Assembly (NCBI GenBank): GCA_002791595.1
Contig: PFXJ01000092.1
Location: 17,847 to 81,846, forward strand
Direction of reading: 5' to 3'
From: a candidate division Zixibacteria bacterium CG_4_9_14_3_um_filter_46_8
GTDB taxonomy: Bacteria; Zixibacteria; MSB-5A5; UM-FILTER-46-8
DNA: 64,000 nucleotides
The notes beneath the pieces are model-generated. The model worked only from the letters and a program-made list of their open reading frames with translations. It searched no databases and was not told the DNA's origin. This document shows positions 8,563-53,846 of the stretch, one piece after another (the first letter of the stretch is position 1; each line of letters opens with the position of its first letter). The position numbers and the translations under genes are program-made.

Positions 8563-8714
8563 GATTAGCGGCCACAAATATGCATCTTCACGGTCGGCCT
8601 GGATACAATCCTGGCTATTGTAGGGCAGTTTGTGGGTTGGATTTTAAATTCCGATGATAATCGGGAATAGCAATCCGAGAATACGACTACCGGACACACC
8701 CCGGCCTTCGGCCA

Positions 8715-8765
8715 CCCCTCTCAAGAGGGGATTGTTCTATCTCTTATTTCCCCTCTTAAGAGGGG
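8715..8765. repeat. Tandem pair of near-identical hairpins CCCCTC-TCAA-GAGGGG and CCCCTC-TTAA-GAGGGG downstream of the SOD gene
   Basis: Read directly from the sequence: two 16-nt perfect stem-loops about 20 nt apart. The same CCCTCAAGAGGG palindrome recurs at 16281-16295. It may act as a terminator or as a REP-like element. Confidence 0.5.
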
Positions 8766-9055
8766 CGGATACTCTGACATCGTCGGAGGAGACGGGGTGT
8801 GTTATTTCAATATCAACAGCCGCTTGGCCTCCTCCAATCCCCCTTGCTCCATACGCGCCTTAAAATCCATTCGGCAGGGAATATTTTTTTGTAGTGCGGG
8901 GCGTTTCTGCCCCGTATATAATTAAGGGCCGTAGGTCAGACCATCGGTTCCTTTGAAGTGTTCTCCAAGCGATGGGGAACCTTTCTGCTCGAGCTGGTGT
9001 ATAATTAGCGTTGCAAAGATCGAAAATGAACTCTTACATCTCTAAGGAGCCCAAA

Positions 9056-10769: not shown

Positions 10770-11312
10770 TCCCGGCCTTTCCCCATAGTAGATAGTAGGT
10801 CCAAGACACTGTTGTCCTGACAATAAATGTGTCCATAGCGCAGGGATCTAAACCTTCGATTCTTGGTATTTGCTCGCCAACCCTTAATCGCAAGTATAAG
10901 AAAGCAGGTTTTATATTTCTTTTGCTCGTCAACCTTCTGGGTTGATTGGGCCAAGGTCACCCCTTTTAGATAATTATCAAGATTTTCAGGTCGATTTTCG
11001 TGTAGAAGCATTTCGAAGAATGGTGCGATTGCCTGCGGGGGTTTTGACAATTGAATTCATGCCGACCTGCACTATTAACCCACTAACCCACATCGCCAAA
11101 CGACGGGTCAATCTAACGACTGGCATAATTTTCGAGATTGAATTAAATCAAGTGTGGTACCATATTTACTTTGGCCCCTCCTGCGATATATTTACTGGAA
11201 AAAAGACATTAATCCGCATATATTGCGGCCGCTCTTCAATTCCTTATATTATTGATTGAAAGTCAATGTTTCTGGTGCGATGGTCGCTAATTCAGAGATT
11301 AGGTGCCAAATT

Positions 11313-13075: not shown

Positions 13076-14032
13076 TCATCTATTTTTTATTAGTTCCAGT
13101 TGCCGTCGAGCTTCTTCCACGGCGATCTCATATATCGGTGAAGCCAGCTCCAGGAAGCGGTCATAATTTTGGGCAGCGGAATCGAAATCGCCCAGGCTCT
13201 CTTCCACTTGGGCTAATCGATAATAACATTCGGCTTCAGCGGGTTGGAGCTTGATGGTGAATTCGAACTTGTCGTGAGCCGCGCCGAGTTCGCCATTGAG
13301 TTGATAGGCATTGGCCAGATTATAGTTAAGGCGATAATTTTCGGGGTCCAGCGCCAGTCCGGAAATAAATACGCCTATTGCCAAATCAAAATTCCCGGTC
13401 ATGCAGTAGGCGACTCCCAGGTTGGTGATAATATCGGTGTCGGCCGTGTCGAGACAGTGGGCTTTCAAGTAGCATTTGATGGCCTCTTCGTACATCTGTC
13501 GATCATCATAAGTTATTCCGAGATTGAAATAAGCGGTGGCTGATGCGCTGTCTAATTCGATAGCTTTCTGAAAATGAACCGCGGCAGATTCGGGCATGGC
13601 AATAGCATCAAATATCGATCCAATTGAAAGATGGGCTTGCGATTGTAAGTAAAGATCCGATTTGCCTTCGATAGCGAGGTAATAGGCATCCAAAGCTGAT
13701 GGGAAATTATTCTGCATCTCAAATGCCAACCCGATATAATAATGCAATCCTACCAACTGCGGATTGTATTCTTCCGCAAAATAAAACTCAGATAACGCCT
13801 GATTATATTTTTGTTGTGATAGATATAACTGGCCCAATGCAAAATAGCACTGGGCACAATCCGGTTTGACTCCAATTGCAGTCTTATAGAGGCCCTCCTG
13901 AATAGCAGGTTCGGATGAAGATGAAGCCTGTCTTAGACAAATCAGACTGCTGTCAAGTGCGGTTTGTCCTAATGCTCCCAACGGCGCAATCAGCATTAGC
14001 ACCATAATATACAGTATTGAAATCCATTTCAT
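13076..14032 (-). CDS. Tetratricopeptide (TPR) repeat protein, secreted
   Basis: Signal peptide followed by about seven TPR-like 34-aa repeats (A..Y..LG..Y...Y..A...F..A). Convergent with the upstream PEBP gene. Confidence 0.8.
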   Translation of the reverse strand: MKWISILYIMVLMLIAPLGALGQTALDSSLICLRQASSSSEPAIQEGLYKTAIGVKPDCAQCYFALGQLYLSQQKYNQALSEFYFAEEYNPQLVGLHYYIGLAFEMQNNFPSALDAYYLAIEGKSDLYLQSQAHLSIGSIFDAIAMPESAAVHFQKAIELDSASATAYFNLGITYDDRQMYEEAIKCYLKAHCLDTADTDIITNLGVAYCMTGNFDLAIGVFISGLALDPENYRLNYNLANAYQLNGELGAAHDKFEFTIKLQPAEAECYYRLAQVEESLGDFDSAAQNYDRFLELASPIYEIAVEEARRQLELIKNR

Positions 14033-15818: not shown

Positions 15819-15994
15819 AAGGGAATAAGTGCTTCTTGATAAAGAAATGATTAATGGAAACTATTGGCAAGATATATTTTCGTATGTCAAGTGGCTGAGA
15901 CACCCAATGGAAAATTGAGACTCCCATTAAGGCTACCCGGTGCACAGAGATGGCTGATGCCTTAATTAGCAGTCCATTCCTAGTCCCCTCTGCA

Positions 15995-16240
15995 GAGAGT
16001 GTTGAAAAAGTCAGGAAACCCGAAAAACGATCTTTACCTTCTCCCGCTTCGTCGGGAGAAGCTTGCCCGTCTGTGGAGGGGTGTCCCGACTTGTCGGGAA
16101 GGGAGAGGGTGTAACCCTAAGCTCCCTTATCCTCCGACTCCTTCTCCCAGTTAATGGGAGAAGGAGAGAAAGAAAAGATATTTTTGAAGCGCGTTCTTTT
16201 TCATGGTAGCCCAGCTTTTTCAACAAGCCCTTCCGCGGGA
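15995..16240 (+). repeat. Copy A of a ~250-bp repeat family with terminal inverted repeats and conserved internal hairpins (MITE-like or structured RNA)
   Basis: By my by-eye alignment it is near-identical over the conserved segments to 52670-52920 (same orientation) and to 44620-44850 (inverted). Flanking TIR is TTGAAAAAG(C/T)CAGG ... CTTTTTCAA. Internal hairpins are CTTCTCCCG-CTTCG-TCGGGAGAAG and CTCCTTCTCCCA-RTTAA-TGGGAGAAGGAG. Confidence 0.75.
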
Positions 16241-16316
16241 ATGACATGTGGAGGAAGTCCGGAAGCCACTTATTCAACAATCCCTCAAGAGGGGACTATA
16301 ATTAATAATTCCGTGC

Positions 16317-44375: not shown

Positions 44376-44572
44376 AAAAAAATCCCCACTTCGGGGATAT
44401 TATTAAATAAAGGTTATTGTCAATAGAAACTCGCGCACCAATAAACCTTCAACCTTCTTCCATCCGGACTATGGCCGTCGGCGTCAGAATTTCACTGGCT
44501 CAGCTTGCGCTCGCGGGCTTTCACCGCCGGTTAAGGAATTTCACCTCACCCCGAAGGTTGATATAAATTTAT
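44376..44572 (-). promoter_or_regulatory. FMN riboswitch (RFN element) with a terminator-type expression platform, leader of the rib operon
   Basis: The minus-strand reading is CUUCGGGGUGAGGUGAAAUUCCUUAACCGGCGGUGAAAGCCCGCGAGCGCAAGCUGAGCCAGUGAAAUUCUGACGCCGACGGCCAUAGUCCGGAUGGAAGAAGGUUGAAGG. It matches the conserved RFN blocks GGUGAAAUUCC, ACCGGCGGU, AGCCCGCGAGC, GACGCCGACGG and AGUCCGGAUGGAAGAAGG. It is followed by the hairpin AUCCCCGAAGUGGGGAU and a U7 run directly upstream of the ribD ATG. Confidence 0.85.
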
Positions 44573-44619
44573 GCATTTTTAGCGAAATGTCAAGTTAATT
44601 CGGCCTATTTTTTGGATGG

Positions 44620-44850
44620 GCTCCTTTGGGCTTATTGAAAAAGCGGGGCTGCCATGAAAAGGGAAGTGCTTTAGAAAATCCTTTTCTTTCTCTCCTTCTC
44701 CCATTAATTGGGAGAAGGAGTTGGGGGATGAGGGAGCTTATGGGGTTGCACCCTCATTCGTCCCGACCAATCGGGACACTTTCTCCCGACGAAGCAGGAG
44801 AAGGTTGAGATTATTTTTCGAGTTTCCTGGCTTTTTCAATACTTCCCTTT
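44620..44850 (-). repeat. Copy B (inverted orientation) of the ~250-bp TIR-flanked hairpin-rich repeat
   Basis: Its reverse complement aligns to copies A and C. It lacks the ~25-nt variable segment and carries the A-type variable hairpin (GUCCCGAUUGGUCGGGAC). It lies between the FMN riboswitch and the dtd promoter. Confidence 0.7.
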
Positions 44851-44921
44851 CCCAGCCCATCAGGGGTTTTTTATTGACATGCGCAGGCCTTAATGGTAAA
44901 TTTGAGAACTTTCGGAATTAT

Positions 44922-45362
44922 ATGAGAGTAGTAATCCAGCGCGCCAAGTCCGCTTCGGTCCGAGTCGAGGGGCGAACGGTGGGAGCTATCGGAATCGGTA
45001 TGGTTGTCCTATTGGGTGCCACGAAGGGCGATACTGAAGGTTCGGTGCGAAAAATTGCGGAAAAATTGATGCATTTGAGGATTTTCGAAGATGGCCAAGG
45101 GAAAATGAATTTATCTGCCAAGAGCGTAGGAGCCGAATTCTTGGTCATCAGCCAATTCACTCTTTATGCGGATACTTCCCGTGGCCGCCGCCCATCATTC
45201 ACAGATGCCCTCGAGGCCGCGGAGGCGGAGCGATTATACCTTAAATTGGCAGAATATCTTCGTGAGTCCGGCTTTAAGGCCGAAACCGGTCTTTTCGGAG
45301 CGAAGATGCAAGTGGAATTGGTCAATGATGGCCCGGCGACTTTCATCATCGAGGAAAAATGA
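44922..45362 (+). CDS. dtd: D-aminoacyl-tRNA deacylase
   Basis: MRVVIQRAKSASVRVEGRTVGAIGIGMVVLLGATKGD...SQFTLYAD and the ~147 aa length. The in-frame upstream extension to 44721 runs through repeat copy B, so I reject it. A TTGACA-17-TAAATT promoter lies at about 44873-44901. Confidence 0.85.
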   Translation: MRVVIQRAKSASVRVEGRTVGAIGIGMVVLLGATKGDTEGSVRKIAEKLMHLRIFEDGQGKMNLSAKSVGAEFLVISQFTLYADTSRGRRPSFTDALEAAEAERLYLKLAEYLRESGFKAETGLFGAKMQVELVNDGPATFIIEEK

Positions 45363-52306: not shown

Positions 52307-52669
52307 TTCAATGCCATAGGGGGAATGTTGAAAAAACAACGGTAGGTAGAGATCTTGACCTCGACCTGGACGCCAATGGCGTCCATAAATTATTCGAATG
52401 CAGGGGTCAAGACCCCTGCACCCCCCATTCCCAAACCAAGTTCCGAAGGATGGGTTAATCAAATTGCGTAAGGATAAAAGCTCAATCATTTACTGGAGGT
52501 TACCTACTATCGAAATTAGGGTAAATTGACCCATCAATTCAAAAATAGAAATGATGGGTCAAATCAATCGAGATTGGACATCCTTGATAGTTTCGCTACT
52601 CGCTCGAACGCGATCTTAAGCTAACCGGATTGACCCATCCTATGAACCGCGTATGTCATTCCCGTGAAA

Positions 52670-52920
52670 GGGAGTGTTGAAACAGCCAAAAAACTCGAAA
52701 AATGACCTCAACCTTCTCCCGCTTCGTCGGGAGAAGCTTGCCCGCCTGAGGTAGGGTGGCCCCGCCTATAGCGGGGACAGATGAGGGTGTAACCCCATAA
52801 GCTCCCTCATCCTTCGACTCCTTCTCCCAATTAATGGGAGAAGGAGAGAAGGAAAAGATTTTTTTGAAGTGCTTCCCTTTTCATGGCAGCCGAGCTTTTT
52901 CAATAAGCCCGAAAGCGGGA
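52670..52920 (+). repeat. Copy C of the ~250-bp TIR-flanked hairpin-rich repeat
   Basis: Same orientation as copy A. The variable hairpin is CCCCGC-CUAUA-GCGGGG here, versus UCCCGAC-UUG-UCGGGA in copy A; the stem is preserved by compensatory changes. It abuts the stop of the mrp/apbC gene. Confidence 0.75.
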
Positions 52921-52922
52921 AT

Positions 52923-53846
52923 CTAATTTTCTGGATTTCCCAAATCGCTTGGAATGGTTGCAAGTGTTTTATCGGGCAATGCCAAAATCGACCGCACAAC
53001 TTTTTCAAATGCCGCGGCAGTAGCGCTTTTGGAATAATGCTCATAGAATGAAATCCCCAAGTCGGACGATTCCACAATTCGAGGATCGATGGGAACTCGA
53101 CCCAGAAATGGGACCCCCATCTCTTCCGCCATTTTTTCTCCTCCGCCGATTTTAAAAACATTCGTCGTCTCTCCGCAGTGGGGGCAGACGAAGCCGCTCA
53201 TATTCTCAACTACTCCGATGATCGCCATCCCCACTTTCCGGCAAAAAACAATCGACCGACGGACATCATCAATTGCAACATCCTGCGGAGTGGTCACGAT
53301 GACCGCGCCATCCAAGCCGGACAGCAACTGGGCAATCGTCAAAGGTTCATCACCGGTACCGGGAGGCGAATCGATCACCAGATAATCCAAATCGCCCCAT
53401 TCCACATCACGTAGAAACTGCCTGATGATGCTAAATTTTAATGGCCCCCGCCAGATTACCGCCTCATCTTTGTCTGGGGTCATGAACCCAATGGACATTA
53501 CAAAAAGATTATTTCCTTTCCTGACCGGGAATATCACATTTTCGGTCCCATCCAGCGGATGCCCTTCCAGGCCGGTCAGCCTTGGGATACTCGGGCCATG
53601 TATATCAATATCCAATAGGCCCACTTTTTTCCCCGCCAGCGTTAGTGAAGTCGCCAGATTCACGGCCACAGTGCTCTTCCCAACCCCTCCTTTGCCCGAC
53701 AAGACGACAATCTTATGCTTGATCTTGGACATCCTGCCGGTTATGGCGTGCCGATCCACAAAAGCCTTGCCCATGCTGGCTCGACGTTGTTCTATTTCAT
53801 CCTGACGATCATCGTCTATCGCATCGGATTCATGCTCATCTGACAT
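52923..53846 (-). CDS. apbC: Mrp/NBP35 family iron-sulfur cluster carrier ATPase
   Basis: Deviant Walker A KIVVLSGKGGVGKSTVAVNLA and a CxxC motif (CPHCGE). Confidence 0.9.
   Translation of the reverse strand: MSDEHESDAIDDDRQDEIEQRRASMGKAFVDRHAITGRMSKIKHKIVVLSGKGGVGKSTVAVNLATSLTLAGKKVGLLDIDIHGPSIPRLTGLEGHPLDGTENVIFPVRKGNNLFVMSIGFMTPDKDEAVIWRGPLKFSIIRQFLRDVEWGDLDYLVIDSPPGTGDEPLTIAQLLSGLDGAVIVTTPQDVAIDDVRRSIVFCRKVGMAIIGVVENMSGFVCPHCGETTNVFKIGGGEKMAEEMGVPFLGRVPIDPRIVESSDLGISFYEHYSKSATAAAFEKVVRSILALPDKTLATIPSDLGNPEN

Follow-up and report, generated by a model that had tools for sequence, protein, structure and literature searches.

The window, a 64,000-nucleotide stretch of contig PFXJ01000092.1 from the candidate division Zixibacteria bacterium CG_4_9_14_3_um_filter_46_8, holds three copies (A, B and C) of a short, hairpin-rich repeat bounded by terminal inverted repeats (TIRs). 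Copy A has on one side the 3' end of a gene for a 1033-aa peptidase-MA/PD40 protein and on the other the 5' end of a gene for a 560-aa protein with a type IX secretion system (T9SS) tail; both genes are on the minus strand. Copy B separates dtd from the rib operon's flavin mononucleotide (FMN) riboswitch, which spans 44448-44562 on the minus strand, and the promoter-like sites on both sides of the copy are intact. Copy C occupies the spacer of the convergent genes rlmH and mrp, where it splits a hairpin adjoining the mrp stop codon (52923-52925, minus strand), which abuts the right arm of that hairpin. An earlier note made from the sequence alone had reported three copies in these contexts, and both their places and their surroundings held up, with refined boundaries (Table 1).

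We compared the copies by BLASTN and obtained E-values of 1e-58 to 1e-69, far beyond chance, with pairwise identities of 83-86% over aligned columns (~220-250 nt aligned). A profile search of the window returned exactly these three, and they are the only long repeats there. To define the ends of the element, we used 20 complete copies from the window's population. The TIR consensus is ~20 nt (left GGGCTTGTTGAAAAAGCCAGG, right CCCAGCTTTTTCAACAAGCCC), so the inverted repeats previously noticed are real and longer than had been thought; in the terminal helix formed by their pairing, 97.8% of cells are paired. Measured between the outer ends of the TIRs, the copies span 216-252 bp; 219 bp is both the commonest length and that of the consensus, and the variants of 222, 241 and 252 bp are set apart by a 19-nt segment that follows hairpin 1, by which form of hairpin 2 they have, or by 11 inserted nt. 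Hairpin 1 (HP1; CTTCTCCCG-CTTCGT-CGGGAGAAG) is perfect, as is hairpin 4 (HP4; CTCCTTCTCCCA-RTTAA-TGGGAGAAGGAG, with a 12-bp stem), both as originally described, and hairpin 2, the "third hairpin" of the earlier note, does occur in two pairing forms (GTCCCGAC/GTCGGGAC and CCCCGC/GCGGGG). A helix of GGATGAGGG...CCCTCATCC and one more A/U-rich helix complete the predicted fold, in which the TIR stem encloses five local hairpins, and this fold is far more stable than that of shuffled sequences on both strands (z = -9.8 and -10.8). The element has no coding capacity for a transposase, and only spurious open reading frames (ORFs) cross it.

We then retrieved further copies by scanning JGI metagenome contigs, an incomplete collection, for the exact 29-nt hairpin 4, which is perfectly conserved, so that the counts are lower bounds. 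The scan gave 45 matches in 42 loci (given L numbers here), many at contig ends. In one metagenome assembly, Ga0210044 (221 kb of retrieved DNA), a profile search found 37 matches, comprising 14 full, 13 partial and 10 contig-edge copies, spread over ~25 contigs and each with unrelated flanks. None of the retrieved loci overlaps the window, giving at least 40 copies of this family (family 1; three in the window plus 37 in the assembly), and a number in the hundreds genome-wide is possible. Proteins from seven of ten tested repeat-bearing loci carry CO189_ locus tags (a Zixibacteria metagenome-assembled genome (MAG), NCBI records), and the Zixibacteria MAG CG_4_9_14_3_um_filter_46_8 (Crystal Geyser) encodes an Mrp protein 100% identical to that of the window. 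The hairpin 4 pattern found no family member among GTDB species genomes, only three non-family matches that share modules; the whole element found none in the plasmid database, and a search of viral contigs with the TIR gave five matches, about the chance level, and no paired TIR.

Next, we inspected the flanks. An exact 4-nt target-site duplication (TSD; GAAA, TGGA, CTTG, TTTC or AAAG) directly outside the TIRs is present in 8 of the 20 complete copies, and three more copies match at 3 of 4 positions. In 2000 flank permutations, exact duplications averaged 1.2 and never exceeded 5, and random sequence would give 0.08. Beyond the TSD, the two flanks are inverted repeats of each other, in a sequence that differs between copies. 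Five classes of such hairpins were seen: ATTCCCRC/GYGGGAAT, CCCCTC/GAGGGG, CCCACAG/CTGTGGG, CCCCGC/GCGGGG and GATGGGCT/AGCCCATC, with 22, 9, 8, 10 and 8 instances outside the element in 285 kb from the same population. We rebuilt empty sites by joining the left flank, one TSD and the right flank, and compared them with intact sequence elsewhere. The site of the L021 copy was matched at 43/44 positions by four sites in L014, L032 and L021 and at 39/41 by window 8701-8741, that of L035 at 30/30, that of L026 at 25/25 by more than 15 sites, and those of L016 and L028 at 41-42 of 44 aligned columns; the rebuilt site of window copy C (ATGTCATTCCCGTGAAAGCGGGAATCTA) agreed at 27/28 with intact hairpins in L035 and L016. 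These rebuilt hairpins imply that the element lands on the dyad axis of existing palindromes and duplicates the 4-nt loop. The same hairpin class was entered in both orientations (GAAA and TTTC loops). Judged from these flanks, the target is the tetraloop of palindromes resembling repetitive extragenic palindromes (REPs), in at least five sequence classes.

We also observed that copies at different targets can be 98-100% identical (L021, L028, L038 and L007) and that those of L016 and L045 are 99% identical, consistent with recent transposition. Contigs tend to break at copies, 10 of the 37 matches in Ga0210044 being at contig ends. The window copies are more diverged than the others and are old, fixed insertions; the rlmH-mrp spacer with copy C is 100% identical in five other assemblies and differs by one base in a sixth, and in the closest relative (Mrp 68% identical) synteny is lost and no copy is present.

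Taken together, the TIRs, the 4-bp TSDs, the empty sites, the near-identical copies at different sites and the contig breaks make it very probable that these repeats are a non-autonomous DNA transposon family (MITEs, for miniature inverted-repeat transposable elements) of the Zixibacteria genome that inserts at the dyad axis of REP-like palindromes. This bears out one of the two alternatives in the earlier note, an active or recently active MITE family. A transposase supplied in trans would bind the TIRs, and it would be of the DDE type, because TIRs occur here with a fixed-length target duplication. It would direct insertion to the dyad axis of G+C-rich palindromes of the form CCC-N(1-4)-loop-N(1-4)-GGG, cutting with a 4-nt stagger centred on the dyad so that the 4-nt loop would be duplicated. 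We infer that the target is probably recognised as a palindrome or hairpin; it might be read in duplex DNA, as a symmetric consensus with CCC..GGG on either side of the loop, or as an extruded hairpin. The GGG/CCC termini of the element re-create mini-hairpins at both junctions and may have a part in the mechanism.

Several observations weigh against this reading. In 285 kb from the window's population, among the window ORFs, on plasmids and in viral contigs, we found no autonomous element bounded by these TIRs; we looked for pairs of TIRs spaced 0.7-3 kb, for segments of 300 bp or longer that a self-BLAST showed in several copies, and for Pfam domains in 27 window ORFs. tblastn with an approximate IS5 transposase query likewise found no transposase. 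Twelve of the 20 complete copies have no exact TSD, the missing duplications being the result of decay, of a 1-nt boundary ambiguity or of chimeric flanks. Every empty site is paralogous, that is, another repeat copy, and none is allelic, copy C being present in every assembly seen. Furthermore, the stems of HP1 and HP3 are ~4-fold less variable than loops, linkers and TIRs (minor-allele fraction 0.022-0.028 versus 0.09-0.12 elsewhere; paired versus unpaired columns, p = 2e-5), which a purely selfish, neutrally decaying MITE does not predict. The invariance of HP4 was also considered as a sign of selection and rejected, since HP4 was the search pattern and its invariance reflects ascertainment. 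As to the source of the transposase, the TIRs (GGGCTTGTTGAAAAAGCC type) may resemble IS903/IS5-like or IS6-like ends (GGnnnTGTTGnAAA), which we take as a lead only.

Table 1. Positions in the window of the three family-1 copies, their hairpins, their target sites and adjoining features
Feature	Position	Strand	Remarks
Copy A, family-1 candidate MITE	15995-16230	+	degenerate left TIR GAGAGTGTTGAAAAAGTCAGG; right TIR ends ...CTTTTTCAACAAGCCC; extra 19-nt segment after hairpin 1
REP-type hairpin cassette of copy A	16037-16166	+	module classes match published REPs
HP1 of copy A	16038-16061	+	
HP2 of copy A	16083-16099	+	
HP3 of copy A	16101-16109 pairs with 16124-16132	+	decayed
HP4 of copy A	16138-16166	+	
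Right-hand 54 nt of family-2 candidate MITE, adjoining copy A	16231-16284	+	half T1 hairpin (TTCC GCGGGAAT GACAT) and TIR CACTTATTCAACAATCCC
Target hairpin of composite A, left half	15985-15994	+	CCCCTC and loop/TSD remnant TGCA
Target hairpin of composite A, partner	16285-16294	+	TCAA GAGGGG; duplication decayed, 2/4 positions match
Copy B, family-1 candidate MITE	44628-44846	-	219 bp
rib operon promoter-like site, outside copy B	44593 to 44566	-	
dtd promoter-like site, outside copy B	44874 to 44902	+	
Left TSD of copy B, AAAG	44847-44850	-	target-hairpin arm GATGGGCT at 44854-44861
Partner TSD of copy B, AAAG	44624-44627	-	partner arm AGCCCATC at 44615-44622
Copy C, family-1 candidate MITE	52670-52910	+	241 bp; extra 19-nt segment; CCCCGC/GCGGGG hairpin 2; cassette 52712-52846
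Target hairpin of copy C, left arm and TSD	52658-52669	+	ATTCCCGT and TSD GAAA
Target hairpin of copy C, TSD and right arm	52911-52922	+	TSD GAAA and GCGGGAAT

The interior of the element proved to be a repeat that other bacteria have as well. Its core cassette reads CCTTCTCCC..GGGAGAAGG, a small variable hairpin and GGATGAGGG, followed at a distance by CCCTCATCC and a second hairpin, which is the arrangement of a REP-type doublet; in the Zixibacteria MITE, the right-hand unit has no small hairpin of its own. In the Zixibacteria genome the cassette motifs are confined to MITE copies (50 inside versus 0 outside, and 53 versus 2), making the MITE the vehicle that spreads the cassette there. By inspection, HP1 and HP4 are of the S. 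meliloti REP type, HP1 3' arm plus small hairpin plus GGATGAGGG (GGRTGAGGG) is of the D. radiodurans REP type, and target hairpin T1 (ATGTCATTCCCGCGAAAGCGGGAATC) is of the R. conorii/N. meningitidis REP type, the canonical sequences being ACCTTCTCCCCGCAAGCGGGGCGAAGG for S. meliloti, GGGAGAGGGCCTTGCGAAGCAAGGGGTGAGGG for D. radiodurans, TATGTCATTCCCGGCAAAGCGGGAATCCAGT for R. conorii and CCGTCATTCCCACGAAAGTGGAATCTAGAA for N. meningitidis (PMC1525189, Additional file 15). Cargo and target thus both appear to belong to described REP classes, and insertion directed to the axis has a precedent in autonomous insertion sequences (ISs). With regard to a match to an already described family, which the earlier note had named as a refutation, the answer is divided: the hairpins and the target match published REPs, whereas Rfam, searched at gathering and permissive thresholds with the window, copy A and eight cassette-bearing loci, gave no real match. 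In the window only the FMN riboswitch scored, and the sub-threshold matches were to generic long-hairpin miRNA models.

We then looked for the cassette in other bacteria. Its 9-mers CCTTCTCCC/GGGAGAAGG and GGATGAGGG/CCCTCATCC are very common in GC-rich prophage contigs and Rhizobiaceae replicons. The viral contig L093 has two intergenic elements (1294-1435 and 11010-11155) with the module order of the MITE cassette, and a scan of viral contigs for GGGAGAAGG-N(12-40)-GGATGAGGG gave at least 120 loci (GC 0.60-0.74 among the contigs checked). Among the matches listed were at least 18 distinct complete doublets, 120-177 nt long and with no visible TIR or duplication. Their left unit is CCTTCTCCC-cttgt-GGGAGAAGG, a T, a small hairpin with a cGAAg or cGCAg loop, and GGATGAGGG; 30-70 variable nt follow; and the right unit is CCCTCATCC, a small hairpin and CCTTCTCCC-acaag-GGGAGAAGG. 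The cassettes occupy short spacers between genes, and some follow the HK97-type capsid gene at sites that are orthologous among related prophages, where they differ in a compensatory way (L258 versus L277; L195, L209 and L290). tblastn with the capsid did not single out a host for the GC-rich prophage contigs. In BLASTN against plasmids, the cassette was found in 130 records, 92 of them from Rhizobium, 17 from Shinella and 5 from Sinorhizobium, with others from Neorhizobium, Methylobacterium, Phyllobacterium and further genera; nearly all lie in unannotated spacers, for example inside the R. leguminosarum rhamnose operon. Cassette loci include viral contigs L174-L293 and L294 1506-1660 (R. leguminosarum pRL3b4). 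The interior of the MITE is this REP-type doublet cassette, which Alphaproteobacteria and their prophages have without TIRs. The cassette may be equivalent to the rhizobial RIMEs (Osteras 1995), which we take as a lead only.

The earlier note had also read compensatory changes in the third hairpin as covariation, and this claim fared differently at the two scales. Within the MITE family, the RNAalifold covariation term was +0.5, which is not significant, and double-sided changes are essentially limited to hairpin 2. Both forms of hairpin 2 are hairpin classes that also stand free in the Zixibacteria genome, and they combine freely with the 19-nt segment; the free-standing classes point to a swap of modules, not to stepwise compensation. 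The G.U versus A.C tally in the family, ~10 versus 6 cells, is too small to inform on strand. Across the wider cassette, the same small hairpin does covary, and strongly. In an alignment of 48 distinct cassette units, its outer five pairs were 92.9% paired, versus 67.7% in shuffles and 24-40% when slid, and there were 50 double-sided changes versus 13.9 in shuffles; 0 of 500 shuffles reached the observed values. G.T exceeded A.C by 11 to 1 in the orientation of the unit, though the units of a doublet are on opposite strands. Among the matches listed, 91 distinct small-hairpin sequences were present, of which 87% fold with at least four pairs, with a mean minimum free energy of -8.5 versus -3.5 kcal/mol for shuffled sequences. 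Stems this conserved and a small hairpin that covaries speak for a role of the cassette in single-stranded form, as DNA or as RNA.

This last point bears on the foremost alternative, in which the element is primarily a structured RNA (a cis-regulatory untranslated-region module, a small RNA, or a REP/BIME-like array that stabilises or processes mRNA) and the TIRs explain only how it spread. We regard it as improbable. It would account for the conserved HP1 and HP3 stems and for the strong covariation and wobble bias of the small hairpin, and it fits a cassette that related prophages retain, with compensatory changes, at orthologous positions 3' of the capsid gene and that also lies within the R. 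leguminosarum rhamnose operon; the left TIR has a weak promoter-like site directed inward, and rhizobial REPs have been reported to be transcribed (PMC2873474). The wobble bias is seen in both opposite-strand units of the doublet, so that one transcript cannot account for it. Nor does an RNA readily explain that both strands fold equally well, that covariation within the MITE family is not significant, or that copies lie in both orientations in every type of gap, including between divergent promoters, where coverage by a transcript would be unnecessary. There is no match to an Rfam family and no intrinsic-terminator signature, neither terminators nor outward promoters in the element exceeding chance, and the invariance of HP4, as said, comes from the search pattern. 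Effects of the copies on neighbouring genes are speculative.

A second alternative is a repeat of the REPIN/BIME type whose movement, in the form of single-stranded DNA, depends on a REP-associated tyrosine (Y1/HUH) transposase; that enzyme would recognise the internal hairpins, and the TIRs would be no more than the outermost palindrome. This is more doubtful still, and we give it very little weight. In its favour, two REP-type units stand inverted to each other in the core, which is the arrangement of REPINs; the core also matches REP classes in the literature, its hairpins are conserved, and the wobble bias is strand-specific in the orientation of the unit. However, elements mobilised by Y1 enzymes (IS200/IS605, RAYTs) make no TSD and need no TIRs (PMC3333891), whereas the Zixibacteria element has a 4-nt TSD and 20-bp TIRs. 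A second family with a different interior has the same TIRs, the cassette is never without TIRs in the Zixibacteria genome, and the GTAG-type 5' tetranucleotide of classical REPs is absent. An IS200/IS605-derived (PATE-like) element was rejected for the same TIRs and 4-nt TSD. Finally, a local triplication or chance similarity confined to the window contig, which the presence of only three copies in the window might have suggested and which the earlier note had allowed for, can practically be discounted, given at least 37 more matches on ~25 contigs with unrelated flanks and inter-copy E-values of 1e-58 or lower.

The MITE reading extends to the second family just mentioned. Family 2 (~150 bp; L007 4717-4868) has the TIRs of family 1 and a different interior, with a TCAG duplication in a hairpin of the CCCCGC/GCGGGG type. 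It carries the hairpin ATGTCATTCCCGCGAAAGCGGGAAT and is also found at L016 8830-8995 and, in part, at window 16231-16284, as seen by alignment with the L007 element and with the flanks in L035, L045 and L016; mini-versions of ~40-50 nt occur in tandem in L016. Family 1 is often nested in a hairpin of family 2, as in the TTTC loop of the latter in L035 and L045, and the right end of family 2 also follows family-1 copies in L016 and at window copy A. At copy A the left part of family 2 is absent, and the true right end is at ~16284; the composite 15995-~16284, a hybrid that used one TIR of either family, appears to have transposed whole, which would explain the mismatched flanks of copy A.

Other hairpin arrays in the same population touch on this system. 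A mosaic of ~365 bp recurs in tandem, consisting of the T2 hairpin, GGCCGAAGGCC, GGCAGATGTCCTCGTCTGCC, the T3 hairpin and TTCCGGACTCGATCCGGAA; it is BIME-like, was found at L014 1862-2799 and at positions 1-340 of L012, L019, L033 and L042 with 94-96% identity, and some of its copies contain a MITE. In L009 12660-13175 (the same locus in L037), a lone perfect right TIR (GGCTTTTTCAACAAGCCC, at 13158-13175) follows ~500 bp of hairpin-rich non-coding DNA with no recognisable left TIR and could mark where a third, longer element with this TIR ends.

We compared the family with known bacterial MITEs, namely Correia/NEMIS, RUP, Nezha, Chunjie, QMITE1/2 and MITEAba12 (reviewed in PMC10969869 and PMC3184786). 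Like these, it is 100-300 bp long without an ORF, has TIRs, short TSDs and many intergenic copies, is predicted to fold stably, and comes in more than one size, with some copies truncated or nested. Unlike these, its target is the loop or dyad axis of several palindrome classes and not a TA or AT-rich site, and its interior is a REP-type doublet common to distant phyla and not a deleted IS. ISs of five families target REPs (Tobes and Pareja 2006, PMC1525189). Among them, ISPsy8 (IS3 family) makes a 3-bp repeat at the REP symmetry axis, ISRm22 makes a 6-bp repeat at the palindrome axis and has hybrid flanks attributed to recombination between copies, and IS1397/ISKpn1 (IS3 family) are further REP-targeting ISs (PMC1525189). 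These share with the Zixibacteria element insertion at the axis, a short direct repeat taken from the central bases, broken palindrome halves and, in some cases, hybrid flanks. They differ in being autonomous and in each being tied to one host REP sequence, whereas the Zixibacteria element is non-autonomous, enters at least five hairpin classes with unrelated loops in both orientations, and duplicates 4 nt. For IS1397, which would insert in the PU loop, the duplication may be of 3-4 bp.

With REPs, BIMEs and REPINs, the Zixibacteria cassette shares the doublet of inverted units, and the genome has G+C-rich palindromes and mosaic clusters as theirs do; unlike them, the cassette is bounded by IS-like TIRs, makes TSDs, never stands alone and has no GTAG head. 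The pneumococcal BOX, RUP and SPRITE clusters (PMC10969869) are alike in that small repeat families are inserted in one another to form mosaic intergenic clusters, and unlike in sequences, hosts and target rules. In the literature covered, which was incomplete, we found no report of a MITE with such behaviour nor of repeats in Zixibacteria, and searches by sequence string returned only primers.

On this comparison, the repeats are a further bacterial MITE family; what stands out is the targeting of REP loops across several classes, together with a REP-doublet cargo that is found across phyla. In silico, the family is a clear case of insertion at the dyad axis of several extragenic palindromes, unrelated to one another, by an element that is not autonomous, which extends a precedent set by a few autonomous ISs. 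It links three kinds of repeat that are usually kept apart, in that the cargo of a TIR-bounded MITE is a REP doublet and its targets are REPs. It also documents a mobile-element system, recently active, in a candidate phylum that only metagenomes have revealed, where it explains assembly breaks. Finally, it brings to light a cassette of the REP type, present in several phyla and absent from Rfam, in which the 9-mers are conserved and the small hairpin covaries strongly.

A broader proposal, which we put forward as speculative and on balance unlikely, concerns the unit CCTTCTCCC-loop-GGGAGAAGG, T, a small hairpin (loop cGNAg, stem variable), and GGATGAGGG. Besides Zixibacteria and the published Deinococcus REP, an Ignavibacteria MAG has it, as do Rhizobiaceae, other Alphaproteobacteria and the prophages of these, and it could be an ancient, pan-bacterial single-strand element that is read on its own strand by a conserved protein; the Zixibacteria transposase, for its part, would recognise the geometry of the palindrome or hairpin, not its sequence, in selecting loops of unrelated REP classes. 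If so, the MITE would be a natural reporter of REP recognition and of the reason that near-identical REP classes recur across phyla. A separate observation comes from L001 35-141, in a MAG labelled 'bacterium AUK196', where an element has an identical 37-mer (GGGAGAAGGTGTCCCGACTGGTCGGGACGGATGAGGG) in common with young Zixibacteria MITE copies and is flanked by 17-nt direct repeats (ATTGGTTGARATGTTAT) and not by TIRs; it could be from a related organism, or reflect horizontal transfer or a different vehicle.

For annotation, copies of the element are best masked, because spurious ORFs arise from them. Peptides of this origin from the cassette are recognisable as FSHKGRR, PSPxxGEG and RMRG. In the window, the longest ORF over dtd (44721-45362, 213 aa, TTG start) extends into copy B, and the real dtd start is the ATG at 44922, which gives 146 aa and a full Tyr_Deacylase match.

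Two further stretches of the window contain palindromes of this kind. Window 8690-8805 holds an uninterrupted native REP-type doublet, with GGCCTTCGGCC at 8703, CCCCTC-TCAA-GAGGGG at 8715 and CCCCTC-TTAA-GAGGGG at 8750, then a longer hairpin and then GGGGTGTGT; through its 39/41 match to the L021 empty target, it is a potential unoccupied insertion site. The ~350 bp of non-coding DNA between rlmH and copy C (52307-52657) contain other small hairpins, among them CCCATCA...TGATGGG and GGATTGACCCATCC, similar to motifs in L009.

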